Origin: a virus
DNA: 64,000 bases
Reading direction: 5' to 3' (one strand)
Virus record (IMG/VR): IMGVR_UViG_2881341136_000002
Coordinates: 1,733 to 65,732 of that record
Shown: positions 32,920-41,654 of the stretch, piece by piece
Layout: every line of letters begins with the position of its first letter
Numbering within the stretch: the stretch's first letter is position 1
The notes under the pieces: model-generated
The model's database searches: none
What the model saw: only the letters and a program-made list of their open reading frames with translations
What the model was told of the DNA's origin: nothing
Position numbers and translations under genes: made by a program

Positions 32920-33114
32920 TTATGCCTCGTTATTGTTTTGCCCATACAAAACAGGGTCGTATTTCAATACGCCATTTGTCATGCGCTCTAAAAGTAGCGC
33001 GTACTTCCATGGGACCAGATCAGGCCAGACAGATACTGTAGATTTAGCTATCCCCAAAAACTTAGCGGTGGCAGTCGTCCCACCGAGATGCTTGAGTACT
33101 TTTTCCTTTTCCAC
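32920..33114 (-). CDS. cro: Cro-like repressor
   Basis: GGTTATAKFLGIAKSTVSVW HTH; divergent from cI. Confidence 0.85.
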   Translation of the reverse strand: MEKEKVLKHLGGTTATAKFLGIAKSTVSVWPDLVPWKYALLLERMTNGVLKYDPVLYGQNNNEA

Positions 33115-33146
33115 TTAAAACCTCGAGATTGATTACCATGACAAAC

Positions 33147-33210
33147 AGTTTAATTTTACGAACAATAAAAAGTCAAGAATACGAACCTTATTTGTTCGAA
33201 AATAAGAACA
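33147..33210. promoter_or_regulatory. OR operators (AGTTT-N7-CGAAC type)
   Basis: AGTTTaattttaCGAAC at 33147; GTTCGaaaataaGAACA at 33194. Confidence 0.65.
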
Positions 33211-33866
33211 TGAAAAAAATGAACATACACGACCGAATCAACTTAAGAATGGCCTTGCTTACATTGAAAAGCAGGCACTTAGTTGATGCTACCGGGGCTT
33301 CCAAAGCGACAGTAAGTCAGTGGGTGAATGGCGGTTCCGAACCCTCTGCCAGATACATCCCTTCGCTTGCTAGAGTTCTCAGGGTTTCAGAAAACTGGCT
33401 CTTAGAAGGGGGGCCATTAATTGAGCCTCATCCAGAGACTGGGCACTCAATACCCATCCGCGTTAGAGACATACCGCTAATAACTCTTGAGCAAGCTGCA
33501 ATCTGGCACTCTTTAATGACCGACTCCTTTGAGGACGAGATAGAATTAATAGAGGTTCCTGATCTGGTAACGCCCTATGCGTTTGCTGTGAGAATGGAAA
33601 ATAATTCTATGATGGACCTATCTGGGCAGGGGTTGTCGATACCAATAGGTTCAATACTGATAACTGATGTGGGCAGGCAGGTAAAATCGGGCTCAATTGT
33701 TGTCGCAGCGATCGAGAATCACCGTGAAGCGGTAATAAAACGCTACGTTGCTGACGGCCCAAACAAATATTTAATGTCTATAAATCAAAGTTTTGACAAA
33801 ATACTTTTTAATGAAAAAAGCACGATTATTGGCGTCTGTGTAAAAATGCAAATGAACCTAATCTAA
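33210..33866 (+). CDS. cI: CI repressor (HTH + S24 peptidase), start reassigned to MKKMN
   Basis: ASKATVSQWVNG HTH; RMENNSM Ser motif and AVIKRY Lys motif. Confidence 0.9.
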   Translation: MKKMNIHDRINLRMALLTLKSRHLVDATGASKATVSQWVNGGSEPSARYIPSLARVLRVSENWLLEGGPLIEPHPETGHSIPIRVRDIPLITLEQAAIWHSLMTDSFEDEIELIEVPDLVTPYAFAVRMENNSMMDLSGQGLSIPIGSILITDVGRQVKSGSIVVAAIENHREAVIKRYVADGPNKYLMSINQSFDKILFNEKSTIIGVCVKMQMNLI

Positions 33867-33890
33867 CCTAACCCACCCTCTTTACAAACA

Positions 33891-33913
33891 AGCCGGCTGA
33901 AGCCGGTTTTTTT
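33891..33913 (+). terminator. Terminator after cI
   Basis: CCGGC-TGAA-GCCGG followed by T7. Confidence 0.8.
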
Positions 33914-33928
33914 GTGTCCAACACAAAA

Positions 33929-33982
33929 AGTTTATCGTTACGAACAAAACGGGATTGACAGAAAAGTTCGTTTATATAAACT
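33929..33982 (+). promoter_or_regulatory. OL operators overlapping pL
   Basis: AGTTTatcgttaCGAAC (33929) and GTTCGtttatatAAACT (33966) flank TTGACA at 33955, with a -10-like TAAACT at 33977. Confidence 0.7.
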
Positions 33983-34075
33983 AATATCCATCAGCAGCGA
34001 ACGGGCAGAACTCCTACGAAGCAATACCATGAGTTACTTTGTGACCTGCCTAGCTAAGTAGCCAGTCCGAGGCAA

Positions 34076-34516
34076 ATGAATATGACGACGGTTGATGAAT
34101 GTATAGACCATGGAAGAGTTGGAAATGCAGATGGGTACCTTGCTACAAACAGAAAAATAGATGGTGTTTTAAGAAGTTGCTATCTGCACAGGTTGGTTTA
34201 TTGCCAATCACAAGGGTTAACTCTTGAAGATATTAACGGATTAGTTGTCAGGCACAAATGCGACAACCCGCGGTGCGTAAACCCGAACCACCTAGAAACA
34301 GGGACGGTAAGGGACAACAACATAGATTGCGTTTTGAGAGGGAGACACCCAAAACCAAACGCAAGGATCGATTTGGAAACCGCTGAAAAGATACGCAGCG
34401 AATATAAAACGAGAGAAGTAACACAGAAGCAAATTGGCGAGAAGTACGGACTTTCTCGAACGCACATCGGAGGTATTGTGCGGCATGAGGCTTGGAAAGC
34501 AAACGAAATTACGTAG
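34076..34516 (+). CDS. HNH homing endonuclease with C-terminal HTH
   Basis: VRHKCDNPRCVNPNHLETGT..DN motif. Confidence 0.88.
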   Translation: MNMTTVDECIDHGRVGNADGYLATNRKIDGVLRSCYLHRLVYCQSQGLTLEDINGLVVRHKCDNPRCVNPNHLETGTVRDNNIDCVLRGRHPKPNARIDLETAEKIRSEYKTREVTQKQIGEKYGLSRTHIGGIVRHEAWKANEIT

Positions 34517-35114
34517 CCACAGCGGGAAAGTGTGGCAAGGCAAGACCAACCCACATCGCAGACCACGCTCACTGAGTGGCGATGTGGGAAATCAACCAGG
34601 CGCAGTTGCGCTTTTTGGGTAACACGTTCTGACAGCGGGAAAGACTGCGATCACACCAGAGATACGGTCGTAAGTTCTGCTCCGATTGGAGTGGTAAAGC
34701 GACGCCGGATAGCGTAACCGGCACAAATTTGATTTGGAACGCTCCCCACCTGACGGTTTCTGCGGAACTGAACGGTGTGTTCTCCTGACGCATAGAGAGT
34801 CAATGCTAAGGCCGTCCGATGGCGCGTAAACGGGGTTAGCCTGAGTCCTCGATAAACCACGGATAAAACAGTGCCGTCCGCTCCACGTTACGGAGCACTG
34901 AATTTAAAGCATGGCGAAAGCCGAAAGACTTGAAGGCGATTTTCTCGGTTTGCGCGCTAAAGCATAGCGGGGGTGAAATCGGGGCGGAGAAGCAGAATCC
35001 GCGATGTCGGGACTTGATACTTCCGGCCAGACCAACAAGCCGACTGGTAGCGTTACTACCCTTTGCACCTAATCCGGCGAGGTAGCGCTGCCGGACCGGA
35101 TTAGGTGAATCGCT

Positions 35115-35290
35115 CACAACAGATAAGAGCATTTAGGGGACGGCGACTGTTTTACAGGCTGACAAGCGAACCGGAGATAGTGCTCTTATCGTTGTGGTGA
35201 ATGCACAGGCTGATGTGCCAAACCAGACTGGAAACAGTCGGGAGTCAGGCAAGACAAAGCTGGGATAACCGGTGGCGGCCACCACACAAA
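35115..35290 (+). ncRNA. C4-like antisense RNA with upstream a1/b1-like hairpin
   Basis: TGTGGTG/CACCACA closing stem, GTGAATGCACAGGCTGATGTG head; 16-bp CACAAC-GATAAGAGCA/TGCTCTTATC-GTTGTG leader stem. Confidence 0.65.
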
Positions 35291-35293
35291 ATT

Positions 35294-35352
35294 TAGCGAT
35301 CAGGTGATTAATGGGTTTCCCTGCCCGTTACTCGGTTCGACTCCGAGCGCTA
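35294..35352 (+). other. tRNA-like element (acceptor-like stem plus T-arm, no complete cloverleaf)
   Basis: TAGCG/CGCTA closing stem; CTCGG-TTCGACT-CCGAG T-arm; central TAATGGG/CCCGTTA hairpin. Confidence 0.5.
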
Positions 35353-35403
35353 TTCGAAATCACGTTGCCATCGTGAGAACTGCGAGAGAACTGCTGTGTA
35401 GTC

Positions 35404-35450
35404 ATTGGGCGGTGTGGGTTTTCGACCTTTACCCTATCCGCCAATTTTTT
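35404..35450 (+). terminator. Intrinsic terminator in the early-left operon
   Basis: ATTGG(G)CGG...CCGCCAAT stem followed by T6. Confidence 0.65.
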
Positions 35451-35459
35451 CGCAGACGT

Positions 35460-35596
35460 AAAAAAGCCCACCGTTAGGCAGGCTTCGTTACCCCGGTTAA
35501 CCGACCAAAGTATCACCGGGAGCGACAGAGGGGACCAACCCTCCATCGAGGCAAGACCAATGACAACCGAAGCCGACATTGATCGGTGTGATTATA
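35460..35596 (-). ncRNA. Predicted ~125-nt antisense RNA with its own -10 and terminator
   Basis: Minus-strand TATAAT at 35596-35591 (weak -35); terminator AAGCCTGC-N6-GTGGGCTT-TTTT at 35485-35460. Confidence 0.5.
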
Positions 35597-35901
35597 CGAG
35601 GAACGCTATGAAAGCGCCAGAAATCACAATCACGCTGTACCTCCATCTCAGCGCTTATACAGCTAAACCATTAATTGGCACATGTGACATGTCACAATAT
35701 GGTCATGCGTTAATTTCAACGTGTGAAGTCTCTGTGCCATTCCCTGAAGTAACCCCCGAATATCTGGCTGAACGCAAGATGTCAGCACTAAGAGAGCAGC
35801 AACAAAAGGTTCTCTCCGACGCTCAAACCAAAGCGAATGAACTTGAAGACCAGGTTCAGAAATTGCTGTGCGTTGAGCGCCAGTCAAAAAACCACGCTTA
35901 A
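35560..35901 (+). CDS. Hypothetical protein (alternative start MKAPE)
   Basis: ORF with motif RBS; coiled-coil C-terminus. Confidence 0.7.
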   Translation: MTTEADIDRCDYTRNAMKAPEITITLYLHLSAYTAKPLIGTCDMSQYGHALISTCEVSVPFPEVTPEYLAERKMSALREQQQKVLSDAQTKANELEDQVQKLLCVERQSKNHA

Positions 35902-35919
35902 CCGACCGAGGTAAGACCA

Positions 35920-38175
35920 ATGCCAAACTTTATTGTGGATTACGATCCCAAAAAATCAGCCCTGAAAAACGGGGCTGTTTCGTTAGCTATCACCGTTGAT
36001 GCAAAAAATAAAAAGCTGGCTGAGATGTCAGCGACCATGAAAATGGAGGAGGAGTTTCCGGGCGCAAGCGACAACTTTCTCAAACCGCGTGTAATAGAAG
36101 ACGCGATCGGCTCTCCACGCCCCGCACTTAATAAATTCGATGAAGTATTCCCGAAAGAAAACGAGGTTGTAGATGGTGTCTGGCGGCGTATCGAAGCGCC
36201 GGCACAAGCTAACGATCTCGTCGATTTCTCGACACTGTCGTTGCGCGAAAAAATCGCTGCGTTCGCGCTGTATGCGCAGGTTGAAATCACAGAGCATGAG
36301 TTTTCGATGGTGTGTGATTATCTCGATCTGCCTGATGGCGATGGGGATGCTGACGCAGACACGGACAAGCTGATCCGTGTACTCAGCGGCATTGAATTGC
36401 TGGAGCAGGCCACTGACGACTTGCTGCTCAATGTAGTGAATTCGGTTACTGCTCAATTCCCATCTATCGCCGATGTACCAGAGCGAGAAATTCTGGCGTT
36501 CGTTGATACGCTGACAAACAAACCCAACGAAGATACTCCAGCAAAAATACCATCGATCGCTGGGCTTGATCGTGAGCGTCAGTACACCCATACGTACGCC
36601 ATGTTGGATAAAGAAGTTGCGGCGGCTCTTGTGCGTGACGCAGCAGACTGCTGGGAACTGACAGCCGATCATGTCCGTGAATCTAATGTCCTGATTAATC
36701 AAAACGGTGAAGAATTCCAGCGCTGGTCTATGGAATTGCGTACGGCAGAAAACGCACTAAAAATCCCCCGCCCTATTGTTTTCGCGCTGGTTAGCGCAGG
36801 GAAAAAACGCCCTGAACTACTGAAAGACGCAAACGCCCGCCGCCAGTTCGTGGTTGATTTTCTCGCAGAGCATATGCAATCAGAATCCACCATATCGCAG
36901 AACCACAAAGCAGAAGGAGGGATGTCCACTGAAGAAGAAGAAGAACACGCCAGAGAAAATCTGCGCAGAGGATTTGAGGAATTTAGCAGGAAAACTGACG
37001 CAATATTCGACAATTCCCCTCAGGTTGAAAACCTCGGTCGTGGCCGATTCTCTATTGATGGCCTAACTGGTGACTCAGCATCAAATCAGGGCGAAAAAAC
37101 GGAAGTGGCCAGCGCAATCAATACACCTAAGGCTGAATCAAAGCAGCCTGAAACCGTTACGCCCCTCACACAAGGCGGCGCAGCTGGTGAACAGGTTATC
37201 AGCGACAGCACCGCGCAGCAGGCAAAAGAGTCGCTCGATCAATTGGGGTACGGTGTTTACGCAACCGAAACGGAAGCACCAGCACCAGCACCAGCAGACG
37301 ATTTTCAGCAAAGGGCTGAAGCTATAGAAGCCGAGATCGCAAAGAAAACCGATGGGGAACAAGAAAACCTCAATATCTGGAAACGGGTACAGCGCACAGA
37401 TCCGCGCTACACGAAACCGCTTGCAGGTGCAGGATTTGAAGGTACCAGCATTAACAGCGAATACATGATCATGCGGGCTACTGAAATCTTTGGCCCAGTC
37501 GGTAGCGGCTGGGGTTATCGCGTTTTGGAAGAGAAAATGATCCCTGGCGCGCCGCTGAGTGAATCGCTCTATGACGACAACAAAAAATTCATTGGCGTAA
37601 AACTGCTGCGTGATGCGGACGGGTCGCTTATCAGTGAATTGAATCACTCGCTGAAAATCGCCTTTTGGTACCTCAGCGATGAAAGCGAGCGTTCAGAGAT
37701 CGAAGCATATGGCGCAACGCCGTACATGTACAAAACCAAGACGGGGATTAAAGCAGACTCTGAAGTTATGAAAAAGAGCCTCACTGACTCCATCAAAAAA
37801 GCGCTGTCGCTGCTTGGTTTCAGTGCGGACGTGTGGCTCGGTATGCATGACAATCCTGAATACGCGATCGAAAACGCGATTGAATTCCAAATCAAAAACG
37901 CGAGCGATCGGGCTGAAGATACCGTGCGCCTGCGCACCGAGCTTGATGAGAAATTCACGAAGAACGCAGCGACGCTGGAGAAAGCTGTCAACGTCAACGA
38001 GGTTAACAAGGTGTTCGGTACCATCGCTCGTGAATTGGAAGTACACAGAAAAAACGCAGAGGCCAAAGGCGACACTGAGCACGCTAGATACCTCGCTGGC
38101 CGCCTGCGCCGCCTGAACCAAATCAAAGACGAGCGCATTTCAGCGCTTAACGCCACTGAAGGAGAAAAAGCATGA
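35920..38175 (+). CDS. RecE-like N-terminal region fused to a Rad52/Sak-like annealing domain
   Basis: N-terminal PRPALNKFD RecE-like segment; C-terminal FGPVGSGWG...KKSLTDSIKKALSLLGFSADV. Confidence 0.7.
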   Translation: MPNFIVDYDPKKSALKNGAVSLAITVDAKNKKLAEMSATMKMEEEFPGASDNFLKPRVIEDAIGSPRPALNKFDEVFPKENEVVDGVWRRIEAPAQANDLVDFSTLSLREKIAAFALYAQVEITEHEFSMVCDYLDLPDGDGDADADTDKLIRVLSGIELLEQATDDLLLNVVNSVTAQFPSIADVPEREILAFVDTLTNKPNEDTPAKIPSIAGLDRERQYTHTYAMLDKEVAAALVRDAADCWELTADHVRESNVLINQNGEEFQRWSMELRTAENALKIPRPIVFALVSAGKKRPELLKDANARRQFVVDFLAEHMQSESTISQNHKAEGGMSTEEEEEHARENLRRGFEEFSRKTDAIFDNSPQVENLGRGRFSIDGLTGDSASNQGEKTEVASAINTPKAESKQPETVTPLTQGGAAGEQVISDSTAQQAKESLDQLGYGVYATETEAPAPAPADDFQQRAEAIEAEIAKKTDGEQENLNIWKRVQRTDPRYTKPLAGAGFEGTSINSEYMIMRATEIFGPVGSGWGYRVLEEKMIPGAPLSESLYDDNKKFIGVKLLRDADGSLISELNHSLKIAFWYLSDESERSEIEAYGATPYMYKTKTGIKADSEVMKKSLTDSIKKALSLLGFSADVWLGMHDNPEYAIENAIEFQIKNASDRAEDTVRLRTELDEKFTKNAATLEKAVNVNEVNKVFGTIARELEVHRKNAEAKGDTEHARYLAGRLRRLNQIKDERISALNATEGEKA

Positions 38176-38672
38176 CAACCACCGCTATTGCGCTTGCGCA
38201 TGATTTGCAGAAGCTCCAGCAATTGCTGGAAACGTCCGACGATTTAACGCCAGAAATGATCGCCGACACAATGGAAGGGTTAGAGCTGGAGTTAGCAGAC
38301 AAACTGGATGGCGCATACATCCACGTCCGCAACCTGGAGGGATTGGCAAAAACGTGTGATGAAGAAGTTAAGCGCCTTACCGACCGCAAAAAATCGTTTG
38401 AGAACCGCGCCAAATCAATCAAGGGCTATGTGTTGAATTGCCTGCTGGCTGCCAACCTCGACAAGCTCAAAACGACCACCAACACATTTACAGCCCGTAA
38501 GGGTGTCGCAAGTGTGATTATCGATAATGAAGGCCTGTTGCCTGATGATTTGGTAGCAGTTCAAACTATCGTGGCGCCGGACAAAAAAGCCATCAAAGAG
38601 GCCATTGAAAACGGCGTGGAAGTACCCGGTGCGCACATTGAGATTGGCGCGCGTTCTCTGCAAGTTCGATAA
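38172..38672 (+). CDS. Siphovirus Gp157-family protein
   Basis: IADTMEGL...PDKKAIKEAIENGVEVPGA. Confidence 0.85.
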   Translation: MTTTAIALAHDLQKLQQLLETSDDLTPEMIADTMEGLELELADKLDGAYIHVRNLEGLAKTCDEEVKRLTDRKKSFENRAKSIKGYVLNCLLAANLDKLKTTTNTFTARKGVASVIIDNEGLLPDDLVAVQTIVAPDKKAIKEAIENGVEVPGAHIEIGARSLQVR

Positions 38673-38707
38673 CGGCTGACCACCGTATAGCAAGCGAGGC
38701 AAGACCA

Positions 38708-38884
38708 ATGCTAAAAATGTCGGCAAAGCGAGGGGACGTTATCCATATCGTCTTACCAGATGGCCGGAACGGAATGATAGCAGTGCATTCGCGTAGCGTG
38801 TTCGCATTCCACTTTCCGCCTGATGTTAGGGTGACGTGCGAACGTCGCCAGCCGGAGCAACTGATTAACGATAATCAGAAATAA
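38708..38884 (+). CDS. 58-aa CsrA-like protein (not in ORF track)
   Basis: Own translation MLKMSAKRGDVIHIVLPDGRNGMIAVHSRSVFAFHFPPDVRVTCERRQPEQLINDNQK; motif RBS; ML..S.K.GD.I.I and P.DV.V..E pattern. Confidence 0.6.
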   Translation: MLKMSAKRGDVIHIVLPDGRNGMIAVHSRSVFAFHFPPDVRVTCERRQPEQLINDNQK

Positions 38885-38930
38885 CCCGCCATTAGCAATA
38901 CCGTGTGACCTCCATTTTACGGGGGTCACA

Positions 38931-39137
38931 ATGCAATCATGGAAACCGGGCAAATGCCTGCTATCTGATTTCGACATCAAAATCGGTCGGCTGTCTGCGA
39001 GCGTTAGAAAAATTACCCTAACGCAACAGGATATAGACCAATCCTGCGCAGCGGCCGACGCAATCATTGATAAATTAAGGCAAGACCATGACCGACCTAT
39101 TAACCGACGACGAGCTAATAGAACTGACAGGCTATAA
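38931..39137 (+). CDS. Hypothetical protein overlapping xis
   Basis: ORF with SD sequestered in a 10-bp hairpin. Confidence 0.5.
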   Translation: MQSWKPGKCLLSDFDIKIGRLSASVRKITLTQQDIDQSCAAADAIIDKLRQDHDRPINRRRANRTDRL

Positions 39138-39303
39138 GTATGCGTCAAAGCAACGCGCCGCTCTAACCCGATCCGGCATTTCGTTTATCACCCGTAGGGA
39201 TGGGCGACCCAGCGTCACATGGGCGGCAATTAATGCCAGCCTATCCACTGTGAAAGCTGAGCAATTTAAAGACGTTGAACAGCCTAATTTTGATGCGATT
39301 TAA
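39088..39303 (+). CDS. xis: Excisionase (DUF4224-like)
   Basis: LTDDELIELTGYKYASKQ...RRDGRPSVTW; directly before int. Confidence 0.82.
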   Translation: MTDLLTDDELIELTGYKYASKQRAALTRSGISFITRRDGRPSVTWAAINASLSTVKAEQFKDVEQPNFDAI

Positions 39304-39305
39304 TC

Positions 39306-40331
39306 ATGGCTCGTAAACGTAAAGATCCCCGCGATAACGCATTACCGCCACGCGTATATCGCGGGAAAAGTAAATATGAATTCCACCCGATTGGTGGCGG
39401 CTCTATTTCACTATGCCCTCTCGATTCCCCCATTCCACTAATCTGGGAGAAATACGACGCGGCAAATAATTATCGCGAGGAAAAATTCACTCTTGAGCGA
39501 ATGGCAGAGCGATTCATGCAATCACCAGACTTCCTCGATCTCGCGAGTGAAACACAAAAGGACTACCGGAAATACTCTGCGAAAATAATTCCAGTTTTTG
39601 GTGAGATGTCGCCCGACTCAATCAAGCCCGAACACATCAGGAAATATATGGATAAGCGCGGAGTGAAAAGCAAGACACAGGCAAATAGGGAAAAGGCGTT
39701 TATGTCACGCGTATTCAGATGGGGTTATGAGCGGGGGCTATGTAAAGGTAACCCATGCAAGGGCGTTAAACAGTTCAAAGAAGTGGCGCGAGATCGTTAC
39801 GTGACTGATGACGAGTATAACGCCCTGTACTCCGTCGCAGCTCCATTTGTCCAGGTGGCTATGGAAATAGCCTATCTGTGTCTCTCACGGCAGGGGGATG
39901 TTCTCTCGCTGACTGAGGGGCAAATATTAGATCAGGGGATTTTTATCGCTCAGGGAAAAACGGGCGCAAAACAAATCAAGGCATGGACGGACAGGCTGAG
40001 AGCTGCTGTAACAAATGCACGTAACTTGCCAATAAAACCGGGCATCAGCAGCATGTACATAATTCATCAGGCGACCGGAGGGCGCTACACTCGCGACGGA
40101 TTCAACAGCCGCTGGCAGCAGGCCAAAGAAGATGCGGCCGCGGCGTTCCCACACTTGAGCTTTGATTTCACGTTTCACGATCTCAAGGCTAAAGGGGTTT
40201 CAGATCTCGATGGGACGTTAGCAGAAAAACAGGCAATATCGGGACACATGACAATCAGCCAGACAGCACGATATGACCGCAAAATACCGATCGTTCCAGT
40301 TGTCGGCGGTCAGAATAAAAATTCACGATAA
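39306..40331 (+). CDS. int: Tyrosine integrase of prophage 1
   Basis: LSRQGD, KTG, FHDLKAK, GH, TARYDR catalytic residues. Confidence 0.93.
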   Translation: MARKRKDPRDNALPPRVYRGKSKYEFHPIGGGSISLCPLDSPIPLIWEKYDAANNYREEKFTLERMAERFMQSPDFLDLASETQKDYRKYSAKIIPVFGEMSPDSIKPEHIRKYMDKRGVKSKTQANREKAFMSRVFRWGYERGLCKGNPCKGVKQFKEVARDRYVTDDEYNALYSVAAPFVQVAMEIAYLCLSRQGDVLSLTEGQILDQGIFIAQGKTGAKQIKAWTDRLRAAVTNARNLPIKPGISSMYIIHQATGGRYTRDGFNSRWQQAKEDAAAAFPHLSFDFTFHDLKAKGVSDLDGTLAEKQAISGHMTISQTARYDRKIPIVPVVGGQNKNSR

Positions 40332-40359
40332 TTGCATATTTACCAAACACGCAAAAATC

Positions 40360-40381
40360 ATATTAGGAAGAATATTAGGAA
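40360..40381. repeat. Direct repeat ATATTAGGAA x2 (probable integrase arm sites)
   Basis: Copies at 40360 and 40372 between int and the tRNA fragment. Confidence 0.55.
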
Positions 40382-40395
40382 AGGGATTTCAGGCA

Positions 40396-40417
40396 CAAAA
40401 AAACCGCCTTACGGCGG
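40396..40417 (-). terminator. Terminator downstream of the tRNA 3' end
   Basis: Minus strand CCGCC-GTAA-GGCGG-T7. Confidence 0.75.
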
Positions 40418-40464
40418 CTCACGACATTGCACATAAGTGCTTGTTTTAATTCTTTTTAAATCAA

Positions 40465-40519
40465 TGGTGCCCGGGGCGGGACTTGAACCCGCACAGCGCG
40501 AACGCCGAGGGATTTTAAA
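40465..40519 (-). pseudogene. leuZ: 3' half of tRNA-Leu(TAA), attachment-site remnant shared by both prophages
   Basis: Minus strand TTTAAAATCCCTCGGCGTTCGCGCTGTGCGGGTTCAAGTCCCGCCCCGGGCACCA; 5' half absent. Confidence 0.9.
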
Positions 40520-40646
40520 AAGTTACACCACATTAAATAAAACAATAGGTTAAATGATATCAACAAGTTGCAATTACGGAATTGTACGGAATATTGCGCT
40601 ACGCTCGTTTTTGCTGCCATCAAATCTGACAATGGCAGCGATCTGA

Positions 40647-41654
40647 TTACTTATCTATTTCTAATGAATCAAACGGATTTAGGGTAACAGCCGCATCGAG
40701 ATGATCTGGTGCAAAGTGGGCATAACGCATCGTCATGGTGATAGTGCTGTGACCTAAAATCTGTTGCAGTACCAGAATGTTTCCGCCGTTCATCATGAAG
40801 TGTGATGCGAATGAGTGACGTAAAACGTGGGTAAGCTGCCCGCTCGGTAGTTCAATGCCTGCACGTTTAATGGCGTACTTGAAAGACTCATAAGCTGGGG
40901 TGAAAAGCGACCCGCGTTTTTTAGGCAGCAGGCTGCGCATCTTCTCAGAAATTGGCACCGTTCTATTCTTGTTGCCTTTCGTCCTGGTGAAAGTAACGCG
41001 ATTTGGCAAGATTTGAGATTGCTTTAAATCTTGTGCCTCACTCCATCTTGCACCTGTCGCCAGGCACAGACGAACGATGATACCCAAATCTTTATTATCT
41101 GATTCATCACACGCAGCCAGCAGGCGCTTTATCTCATCCGGATAGAGAAATGCCAGCTCCTGATCACCTTCTTTGAATTGGCGTATGCCATCTAGCGGAT
41201 TTTCTTTATCCCACTCCCCCATCCTTTTCAGCTCGGAAAAGACCGCACGCAGGTAAGAGTATTCACGGTTGACCGTCGCTTCTTTCAGAACAGCTTTACC
41301 CTTTGGATTCCATTCACCTTTCAGCCGTCGTTCGCGGTACACAGCAAACATATTTTTATCAACGTCGATAGCAAACGGATCACCCAAACGTTCACAGATG
41401 GCGAGTAATTTCGTGTAGCGGGAATCACCGGAGGATAGTGTTTTACCGTGCATGTCATACCAGCGCTGAACCAAATCTTTCAGAGTGATATTACTGGTTG
41501 TGGTATCAATGCCTTTTTTATCGGCCATAAGGCGGCGCTCATAAGAAAGCGCCTCGCCACGTGTAGCAAACTGTTTGCGAATGCGTTTACCATCACGGCC
41601 ATAAGGGAAGCACTGGCAAAGCCATTTGCCGGATGGGAGTTTACTTACAGCCAT
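40647..41654 (-). CDS. int: P2/186-type tyrosine integrase
   Basis: TGARWSE, THVLRHSFASHF, ILGH..ITMTMRYAH. Confidence 0.95.
   Translation of the reverse strand: MAVSKLPSGKWLCQCFPYGRDGKRIRKQFATRGEALSYERRLMADKKGIDTTTSNITLKDLVQRWYDMHGKTLSSGDSRYTKLLAICERLGDPFAIDVDKNMFAVYRERRLKGEWNPKGKAVLKEATVNREYSYLRAVFSELKRMGEWDKENPLDGIRQFKEGDQELAFLYPDEIKRLLAACDESDNKDLGIIVRLCLATGARWSEAQDLKQSQILPNRVTFTRTKGNKNRTVPISEKMRSLLPKKRGSLFTPAYESFKYAIKRAGIELPSGQLTHVLRHSFASHFMMNGGNILVLQQILGHSTITMTMRYAHFAPDHLDAAVTLNPFDSLEIDK

Follow-up and report, generated by a model that had tools for sequence, protein, structure and literature searches.

A small early protein of a ZF40-like Pectobacterium prophage with weak similarity to CsrA, encoded beside a start-associated GACCA motif

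What does a 58-amino-acid ORF do when its sequence faintly recalls the global RNA-binding regulator CsrA and its ribosome site carries a motif shared with other early genes? The ORF lies in a 64,000-nucleotide stretch of an IMG/VR provirus record, the whole of which is called the window below. An earlier note, made from the letters of the window, read the ORF as an unannotated CsrA paralog of shifted specificity. Its status as a gene, its relation to CsrA and its relation to the motif are considered here in turn.

A conserved early gene

The reading frame proposed in the earlier note, 58 codons from an ATG to a stop on the plus strand (Table 1), is borne out, as is the peculiarity that residue 44 is a cysteine followed by ERR. 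The product is basic and all-beta, with a conserved C-terminal LIxxNQK tail. It matches the PHROG profile phrog_2482 over its full length (E-value = 2.4e-24, residues 1-58 on profile positions 1-61 of 61) and exhibits 81% identity to gp05 of Pectobacterium phage ZF40 and 47% identity to a protein of Stenotrophomonas phages BUCT708/709. A word-indexed profile search returned 54 relatives of 50 to 87 residues, mainly from Enterobacterales prophages (chiefly of Pectobacterium, Brenneria, Serratia, Yersinia, Klebsiella, Rouxiella and Sodalis). Relatives as distant as 33% identity keep the length and both ends. No Pfam domain was found in any of the 54, and every named relative, that of ZF40 included, is a "hypothetical protein". 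The word "unannotated" was thus right for the ORF track used in the earlier note but not elsewhere, since relatives are annotated as hypothetical in ZF40 and many genomes. The nearest chromosomal relative of the window is a prophage of Pectobacterium polonicum, and the source is a ZF40-like Pectobacterium prophage.

Substitutions between the window ORF and its ZF40 counterpart number 7, 3 and 26 at codon positions 1, 2 and 3, corresponding to 19 synonymous and 11 non-synonymous codons; judged from these sequences, the gene is under purifying selection. One could still argue that the ORF is not a gene at all and that an RNA element or the opposite strand accounts for its conservation, the ORF being short and overlapped by a 131-aa ORF on the minus strand. 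Against this stand the bias of substitutions to third positions in the plus frame, the full-length PHROG match, the retention of length and ends down to 33% identity, and a search of Rfam, which gave no match in 33000-40700. The non-gene reading is already refuted so far as sequence evidence reaches, and its probability is practically nil; the same comparisons confirm the ORF as a real, conserved early gene.

Five residues of the family core are invariant (D18, G19, G22, I24, R29). The tail residues L52, I53, N56, Q57 and K58 are 72-90% conserved across the family, yet they are modelled as disordered. The LIxxNQK tail (residues 52-58, window positions 38861-38881) resembles a docking peptide and matches no recognised motif.

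Gene order was read in ZF40, BUCT708, two metagenomic loci, one Sodalis prophage and many IMG/VR stretches. At every locus an S24 repressor is followed by small genes, a YdfE-like exonuclease, a Sipho_Gp157 gene and the gp05-like gene. On the 3' side there is sometimes one small ORF, then an excisionase-like gene (DUF4224 or HTH_17) and an integrase. Because this order is identical at every locus, the gp05-like gene is fixed in the early-left arm of one temperate phage group.

Table 1. Position of the gp05-like ORF, its neighbours and the associated motif and hairpin in the window
Feature	Position	Strand	Remarks
YdfE-like exonuclease (phrog_2489)	35920..38175	+	First of conserved trio; RBS with motif variant GAGGTAAGACCAATG
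Sipho_Gp157 family gene	38172..38672	+	Upstream neighbour; precedes the gp05-like gene at every locus seen
Short hairpin ACGG-CUGACCA-CCGU	38672..38686	+	GACCA in loop; just after the Gp157 stop codon
Shine-Dalgarno GAGG and 8-nt spacer CAAGACCA	38696..38707	+	GAGG 38696-38699, spacer 38700-38707; directly before ATG
gp05-like 58-aa ORF	38708..38884	+	ATG 38708, stop 38882-38884; ZF40 gp05 / phrog_2482 family
68-aa ORF	38931-39137	+	phrog_27062 (E-value = 5e-35); gp04 in ZF40 annotation
DUF4224 excisionase-like gene	39088..39303	+	RBS also with motif (AAGGCAAGACCATG)
Integrase	39306-40331	+	Follows DUF4224 gene
Motif-bearing starts	28572, 29305, 32408	-
Motif-bearing starts	35560, 35920, 38708, 39088	+
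Motif copy without start	34539

Sequence similarity to CsrA

The protein is not a CsrA (PF02599) in the Pfam sense. Pfam gave no match for it at E-values up to 1 (the CsrA gathering score is 27 bits), NCBIfam gave none either, and a family search of the provirus record returned nothing. BLASTP produced no alignment with the CsrA of a related host, and phmmer found nothing for the window protein among PDB sequences, where a profile of the phrog_2482-type family matched Bap repeats only.

The alignment to CsrA that the earlier note had made by eye is nonetheless reproducible. Placed without gaps over residues 1-46 against the CsrA of the related host (L006), the window protein exhibits 8 identities (positions 1, 2, 9, 14, 37, 40, 42 and 45) and 18 positives, or about 17% identity; offset 0 is the sole register with a positive score (p = 0.0036 by residue shuffles). 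An ungapped profile comparison over the same residues scores +7.8 at offset 0 and -10 to -65 at all 24 other offsets (z = 5.1; none of 20,000 permutations reaches the score). Its positive columns (1, 2, 9, 10, 12, 14 and 32, 37, 39, 40, 42, 44) coincide with both of the stretches aligned by eye.

When 50 family members were compared by hhalign with 30 near-identical proteobacterial CsrA sequences, the probability was 6.6%. Against a diverse CsrA set, which included three phage copies, it was 49% (P = 1.7e-4, columns 29-46 on 29-46), a score reached by none of 300 column shuffles. A second run gave 43.6%, with an E-value of 2.4e-4 that holds for one single comparison. All these probabilities lie below 50%, and the match would fail correction for a Pfam-wide search. 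In a sub-threshold Pfam scan of the 50 members (E-values up to 10), CsrA was the commonest family (6 members, best E-value = 0.013), followed by SH3_2 (4 members). In ESM-Atlas features, CsrA is the sole Pfam family among the 100 nearest named clusters. Two CsrA clusters score 0.86 and 0.84, the second of them all-viral; only about half of the proteins in these clusters themselves pass Pfam. A 53%-identical relative gave the same outcome as the window protein.

Like CsrA, RsmA and RsmE, the gp05-like protein has about 60 residues and starts with ML, and G9, D/E10, P37, V40, V/I42 and, in most relatives, R44-E45 share the CsrA numbering. It differs in that R6 and E46 of CsrA are absent, the window protein has no C-terminal helix, R44 is replaced by cysteine, and the middle third is unrelated. 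In CsrA, this arginine at the junction of beta5 and the helix defines the RNA site and reads the first G of GGA (PMC7366521). Position 44 of the family is R in 60%, S in 28%, C in 6% and N in 6%.

Residues 15-28, which are unlike CsrA, resemble the PDG hairpin of Bap-type repeats, and this resemblance inflated matches to giant repeat proteins. A phmmer search against 1.84 billion representatives returned 7 small relatives and three such giants (P0007 of 3251 aa, P0011 and P0013). The best E-value of this exhaustive search, 1.5e-22, is a sum over about 29 identical 86-aa repeats, each matching only the 17 residues 8-24 with 11 bits. We rejected the three giants as kin, the match being a summed-repeat artefact.

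The likeness to CsrA thus appears weak but specific, and it is sub-threshold by every single method. The chance that it reflects remote homology is, in our estimate, about even. Of the CsrA-like paralog proposed in the earlier note, the repeated likeness in one register stands, but a Pfam match, the helix, Arg44 and a solved CsrA chain among the listed structure matches are missing. Bona fide csrA genes carried by phages (Pseudomonas phi297 and F116, Vibrio VvAW1, Providencia PSTCR8lys) also lie in early-left operons. The main text of a PSI-BLAST survey of phage csrA does not mention ZF40 (PMC7366521).

Predicted structure

CsrA consists of strands beta1 to beta5 and a following helix (PMC7366521). 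The AlphaFold2 model of the window protein (pLDDT 87.7) exhibits five strands (residues 2-6, 11-15, 21-25, 30-34 and 41-45), which lie at CsrA-like positions, and no helix. It is a closed monomer with all five strands paired within one chain; residues 46-58 are of low confidence. The CsrA of the related host, run through the same pipeline as a control, came out open, with a helix at 45-55 and with beta1 and beta5, the strands exchanged in the intertwined CsrA homodimer, unpaired, and it retrieved 15 CsrA/RsmE chains from the PDB at E-values no higher than 1e-4. For the gp05-like model, no CsrA chain occurs among the listed PDB matches of Foldseek and VIA-align (best Z 4.2), and the listed matches of Foldseek against BFVD and AFDB clusters and of both VIA-align searches include no CsrA. 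The structures nearest to it are generic pieces of Ig-like or beta-sandwich type, with Z no higher than 4.2.

The ESM-Atlas shape search retrieved a viral CsrA cluster (TM 0.67/0.63, 46 residues, rmsd 1.5 Å) as the best shape match beyond three unnamed top clusters, which are probably the protein's own family. The nearest Atlas models of the control CsrA are all CsrA, the gp05 clusters not being among them. As to the CsrA fold expected from the earlier note, the model matches one viral ESM-Atlas cluster of CsrA and, among the listed PDB matches, no solved CsrA chain, and the monomer is closed. In AFDB Swiss-Prot the sole type of match was FlbT, the flagellin mRNA regulator of Alphaproteobacteria, whose N-terminal 40 residues align in many models (TM 0.51, rmsd 2.4, probability about 0.8) at a Foldseek E-value of about 2, which is noise level and makes FlbT a lead only. 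FlbT is a proposed binder of the flagellin mRNA 5'UTR (PMC4347634).

A start-associated motif at ribosome sites

The ribosome site of the ORF reads GAGG-CAAGACCA-ATG and carries the shared motif, as the earlier note had said. CAAGACCA has 7 copies in the window, a number that no shuffle reaches (1.75 expected); all but one lie directly against a start codon, on one strand or the other. The pattern (A/G)AGG(C/T)AAGACCA(0-2 nt)ATG is seen at seven early genes in both divergent operons (Table 1).

Outside the window, the 15-mer that includes the ATG of the gp05-like gene is identical in ZF40 and three related prophages, and its exact form occurs in at least 120 IMG/VR stretches. The gene families behind it are headed by a 74-aa protein (49 loci), the exonuclease (44), the gp05-like gene (43) and a 103-aa protein (35); the DUF4224 gene and others also lie behind the motif in IMG/VR stretches. 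Variants are AGGAAAGACC in BUCT708 and AGGTATAACC in a distant phage (L180). The 10-mer AGGCAAGACC has 7 exact copies in ZF40 and 6 and 8 in two related IMG/VR records. The 5.1-Mb chromosome of P. polonicum holds 11, of which 5 are inside the prophage. By this distribution, the motif is private to the phages and not a ribosome-site habit of the host.

The closest known element is the start-associated sequence (SAS/ESAS) of Cluster K mycobacteriophages, likewise an asymmetric repeat that includes the Shine-Dalgarno sequence, lies directly before starts, is oriented with the gene and serves a subset of genes (PMC3203893). Further points of likeness are 7-8 copies per phage, rarity in the host chromosome and an inverted repeat upstream of about 40% of sites. 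The motif described here differs in its sequence and its hosts, belonging to temperate phages of Enterobacterales, and the repeat upstream of it forms a short hairpin, in the loop of which the start-proximal core GACCA recurs. By analogy, it fits the description of an SAS and behaves like that of the mycobacteriophages. In both systems, there are conserved positions that presumably cannot pair with the 3' end of 16S rRNA. The question of what binds an SAS dates from 2011 (PMC3203893).

Upstream GACCA hairpins

A two-site layout like that of CsrA targets is real and enriched at the motif. Known CsrA targets combine a site in a loop with a site at the Shine-Dalgarno sequence (PMC7366521); the candidate sites here are likewise one in a hairpin loop and one at the Shine-Dalgarno sequence, GACCA lying between the latter and the AUG. 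They differ from CsrA sites in that the candidate RNA motif is GACCA and not GGA: the motif holds GAGG and GACCA, and no GGA. Of 91 non-redundant motif sites, 35 have a second GACCA in the 60 nt upstream (background 5%), with a peak at about 20 nt. In 68% of cases this GACCA falls in a hairpin loop closed by 4 bp or more, compared with 19% at other positions (odds ratio 9, p = 3e-12), and the stems have 26 different flanks.

In the window, the hairpin before the gp05-like gene has a stem of 4 bp and is absent from the minimum-energy structure given by RNAfold (z = 0.19). Weak by itself, it gains support from comparison, since CCCCG-GACCAA-CGGGG occupies the corresponding position before other gp05-like genes. 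Elsewhere in the window, a GAGGG-GACCAA-CCCUC hairpin at about 35528-35543 has an RNAfold z of -3.2, and GCGC-CUGACCA-GCGC occurs upstream of 29305. In two phages (L145 and L086) the loop upstream of the gp05-like gene reads AAACCAA in place of GACCAA and the start-proximal motif GGCAACACCC in place of GGCAAGACC; the two sites have either drifted together or changed specificity together. In five others (L062, L079, L153, L065 and L118) the place of the GACCA hairpin between the Gp157 and gp05-like genes is taken by a perfect palindrome, GTGACATGTCAC, which could be an operator or another hairpin.

Association between the protein and the motif

Does the motif travel with the protein? Fourteen of 15 stretches with at least 5 motif copies carry a gp05-like gene; in the exception (L087), the contig ends inside the exonuclease gene. 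Five records with 3-4 copies lack the gene in the motif-bearing stretch itself but carry it elsewhere in the record. Every phage with a gp05-like gene has the motif or a variant of it, and no motif-bearing phage without the gene was found among multi-motif records with a readable region. The co-occurrence across prophages that the earlier note called for is therefore total in the readable records, but it is confined to related phages. It is not independent evidence, because these phages are relatives that share the whole left arm.

The earlier proposal of autoregulation does not extend to the family as a trait. Among 22 non-redundant contexts, the motif stands at the gp05-like gene's own ribosome site in exact form in 14 and in variant form in 2, and 6 have neither, so that self-control would not be family-wide. 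Whether position 44 is R, S, C or something else, the phages concerned have the same motif; any reading of the motif by the protein would therefore not go through that residue. No RNA-binding signature was found in the other early products of the window phage. Four other motif-bearing proteins, of unassigned function, could equally be the binder.

Possible functions of the gp05-like protein

The best overall explanation, which we hold tentatively, is a diverged CsrA-like RNA-binding regulator of some kind; on its sequence, the ORF is plausibly a highly diverged offshoot of the CsrA superfamily. Such an offshoot would have kept two parts of CsrA in their original register, N-terminal beta1-beta2 and the 'xP..V.I.RE' segment of beta4-beta5. 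It would have lost the C-terminal helix and, in the window copy, Arg44, and would have gained the invariant PDG...G.I...R29 core and the LIxxNQK tail. We infer that it may act post-transcriptionally, probably in dimeric form, on early mRNAs of the phage itself. Its likeliest target would be the start-associated element with GACCA between Shine-Dalgarno sequence and AUG, often accompanied by a second GACCA in a short hairpin loop some 20 nt upstream. A protein bound there would lie over the ribosome sites of several early genes and, in the window phage, over that of its own gene. RegA of phage T4 represses translation by binding many early mRNAs at their ribosome sites. The likeness to RegA is one of concept only, namely that one small phage protein shuts off early messages at their ribosome sites.

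A fuller version of this explanation would make the gp05-like proteins CsrA-derived, phage-private regulators whose specificity has moved from GGA to GACCA and whose dimer bridges the GACCA of the loop and that between Shine-Dalgarno sequence and AUG, thus setting the translation of a start-associated regulon. We consider this full version unlikely. The proposed regulon would comprise recombination, excision and replication-side early genes of ZF40-like temperate phages of Enterobacterales.

Equal weight, and hence the same tentative standing, is given to the main rival, a small beta-sandwich early protein unrelated to CsrA that binds other proteins. Its partner could be a conserved host factor, bound through the LIxxNQK tail in a takeover or inhibitor role like that of many small genes between recombination genes and xis/int, or it could be the YdfE-like exonuclease or Gp157, as a recombination accessory. 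The CsrA likeness would then be chance or convergence in a short beta-rich sequence. The confident closed AlphaFold2 monomer (pLDDT 87.7) with its generic Ig-like or beta-sandwich neighbours (Z no higher than 4.2) is in line with this, as are the position of the gene directly after Gp157 at every locus examined and a tail that is 72-90% conserved though modelled as disordered, which is typical of a docking peptide. The CsrA signal, moreover, is sub-threshold by every single method. What speaks against a chance resemblance is that four global searches agree on one named family and on one register. A role as general partner of Gp157 is unlikely, since the Sipho_Gp157 family (PF05565) is broad among phages and the gp05-like relatives found number only 54.

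Two other readings carry little probability. The automatic name of the nearest ESM-Atlas cluster points to a swapped-hairpin DNA-binding protein of the AbrB/MazE/SpoVT type, and a short 'krGD.i.i..pDG' stretch of 14 columns matches the AbrB/MazE profile. That profile, used as a decoy in hhalign, reaches a probability of only 6% against 44-49% for CsrA, PF04014 is matched by no member even at an E-value of 10, and the cluster in question has no common Pfam family. We rejected this very unlikely candidate on the PF04014 and hhalign results. The earlier note also suggested that the protein poisons host CsrA, which as a mimic it might do through mixed dimers with CsrA/RsmA or by titrating CsrA partners. 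This we regard as extremely unlikely: the weak CsrA likeness does fall in strands of the dimer core, but identity to the related host's CsrA is about 17% (residues 1-46), the middle strands are unlike CsrA, and the model is closed, whereas strand exchange would call for an open one. In CsrA, the interleaved hydrophobic core as a whole makes up the interface (PMC7366521).

Phage-borne CsrA is already known. If the RNA-binding regulator reading is true, the novelty would be a derivative without the helix and the key arginine beside a non-GGA regulon, which would show the retargeting of a global RNA-binding fold to private use. On the full specificity-shift version, the protein would in addition be the first known binder of a start-associated sequence in any system. 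ZF40, a laboratory phage for which infection work in Pectobacterium has been published, offers one named candidate protein together with defined RNA sites. Should the CsrA likeness be due to chance, the family would still be a conserved small early protein with a strongly conserved, unexplained tail.

Other features of the locus

The 68-aa ORF at 38931-39137 and the start of the DUF4224 gene overlap by 50 nt. An HNH endonuclease gene lies within the early-left operon (34076-34516, plus strand) and is followed by about 1 kb (34516-35560) without a convincing ORF, which holds the motif copy at 34539 that has no start codon. Two tyrosine-integrase-like ORFs, at 39306-40331 on the plus strand and 40647-41654 on the minus strand, face each other about 300 nt apart. 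ARAGORN found no tRNA between them (40200-40800), and the two ORFs may mark two adjoining integrated elements.
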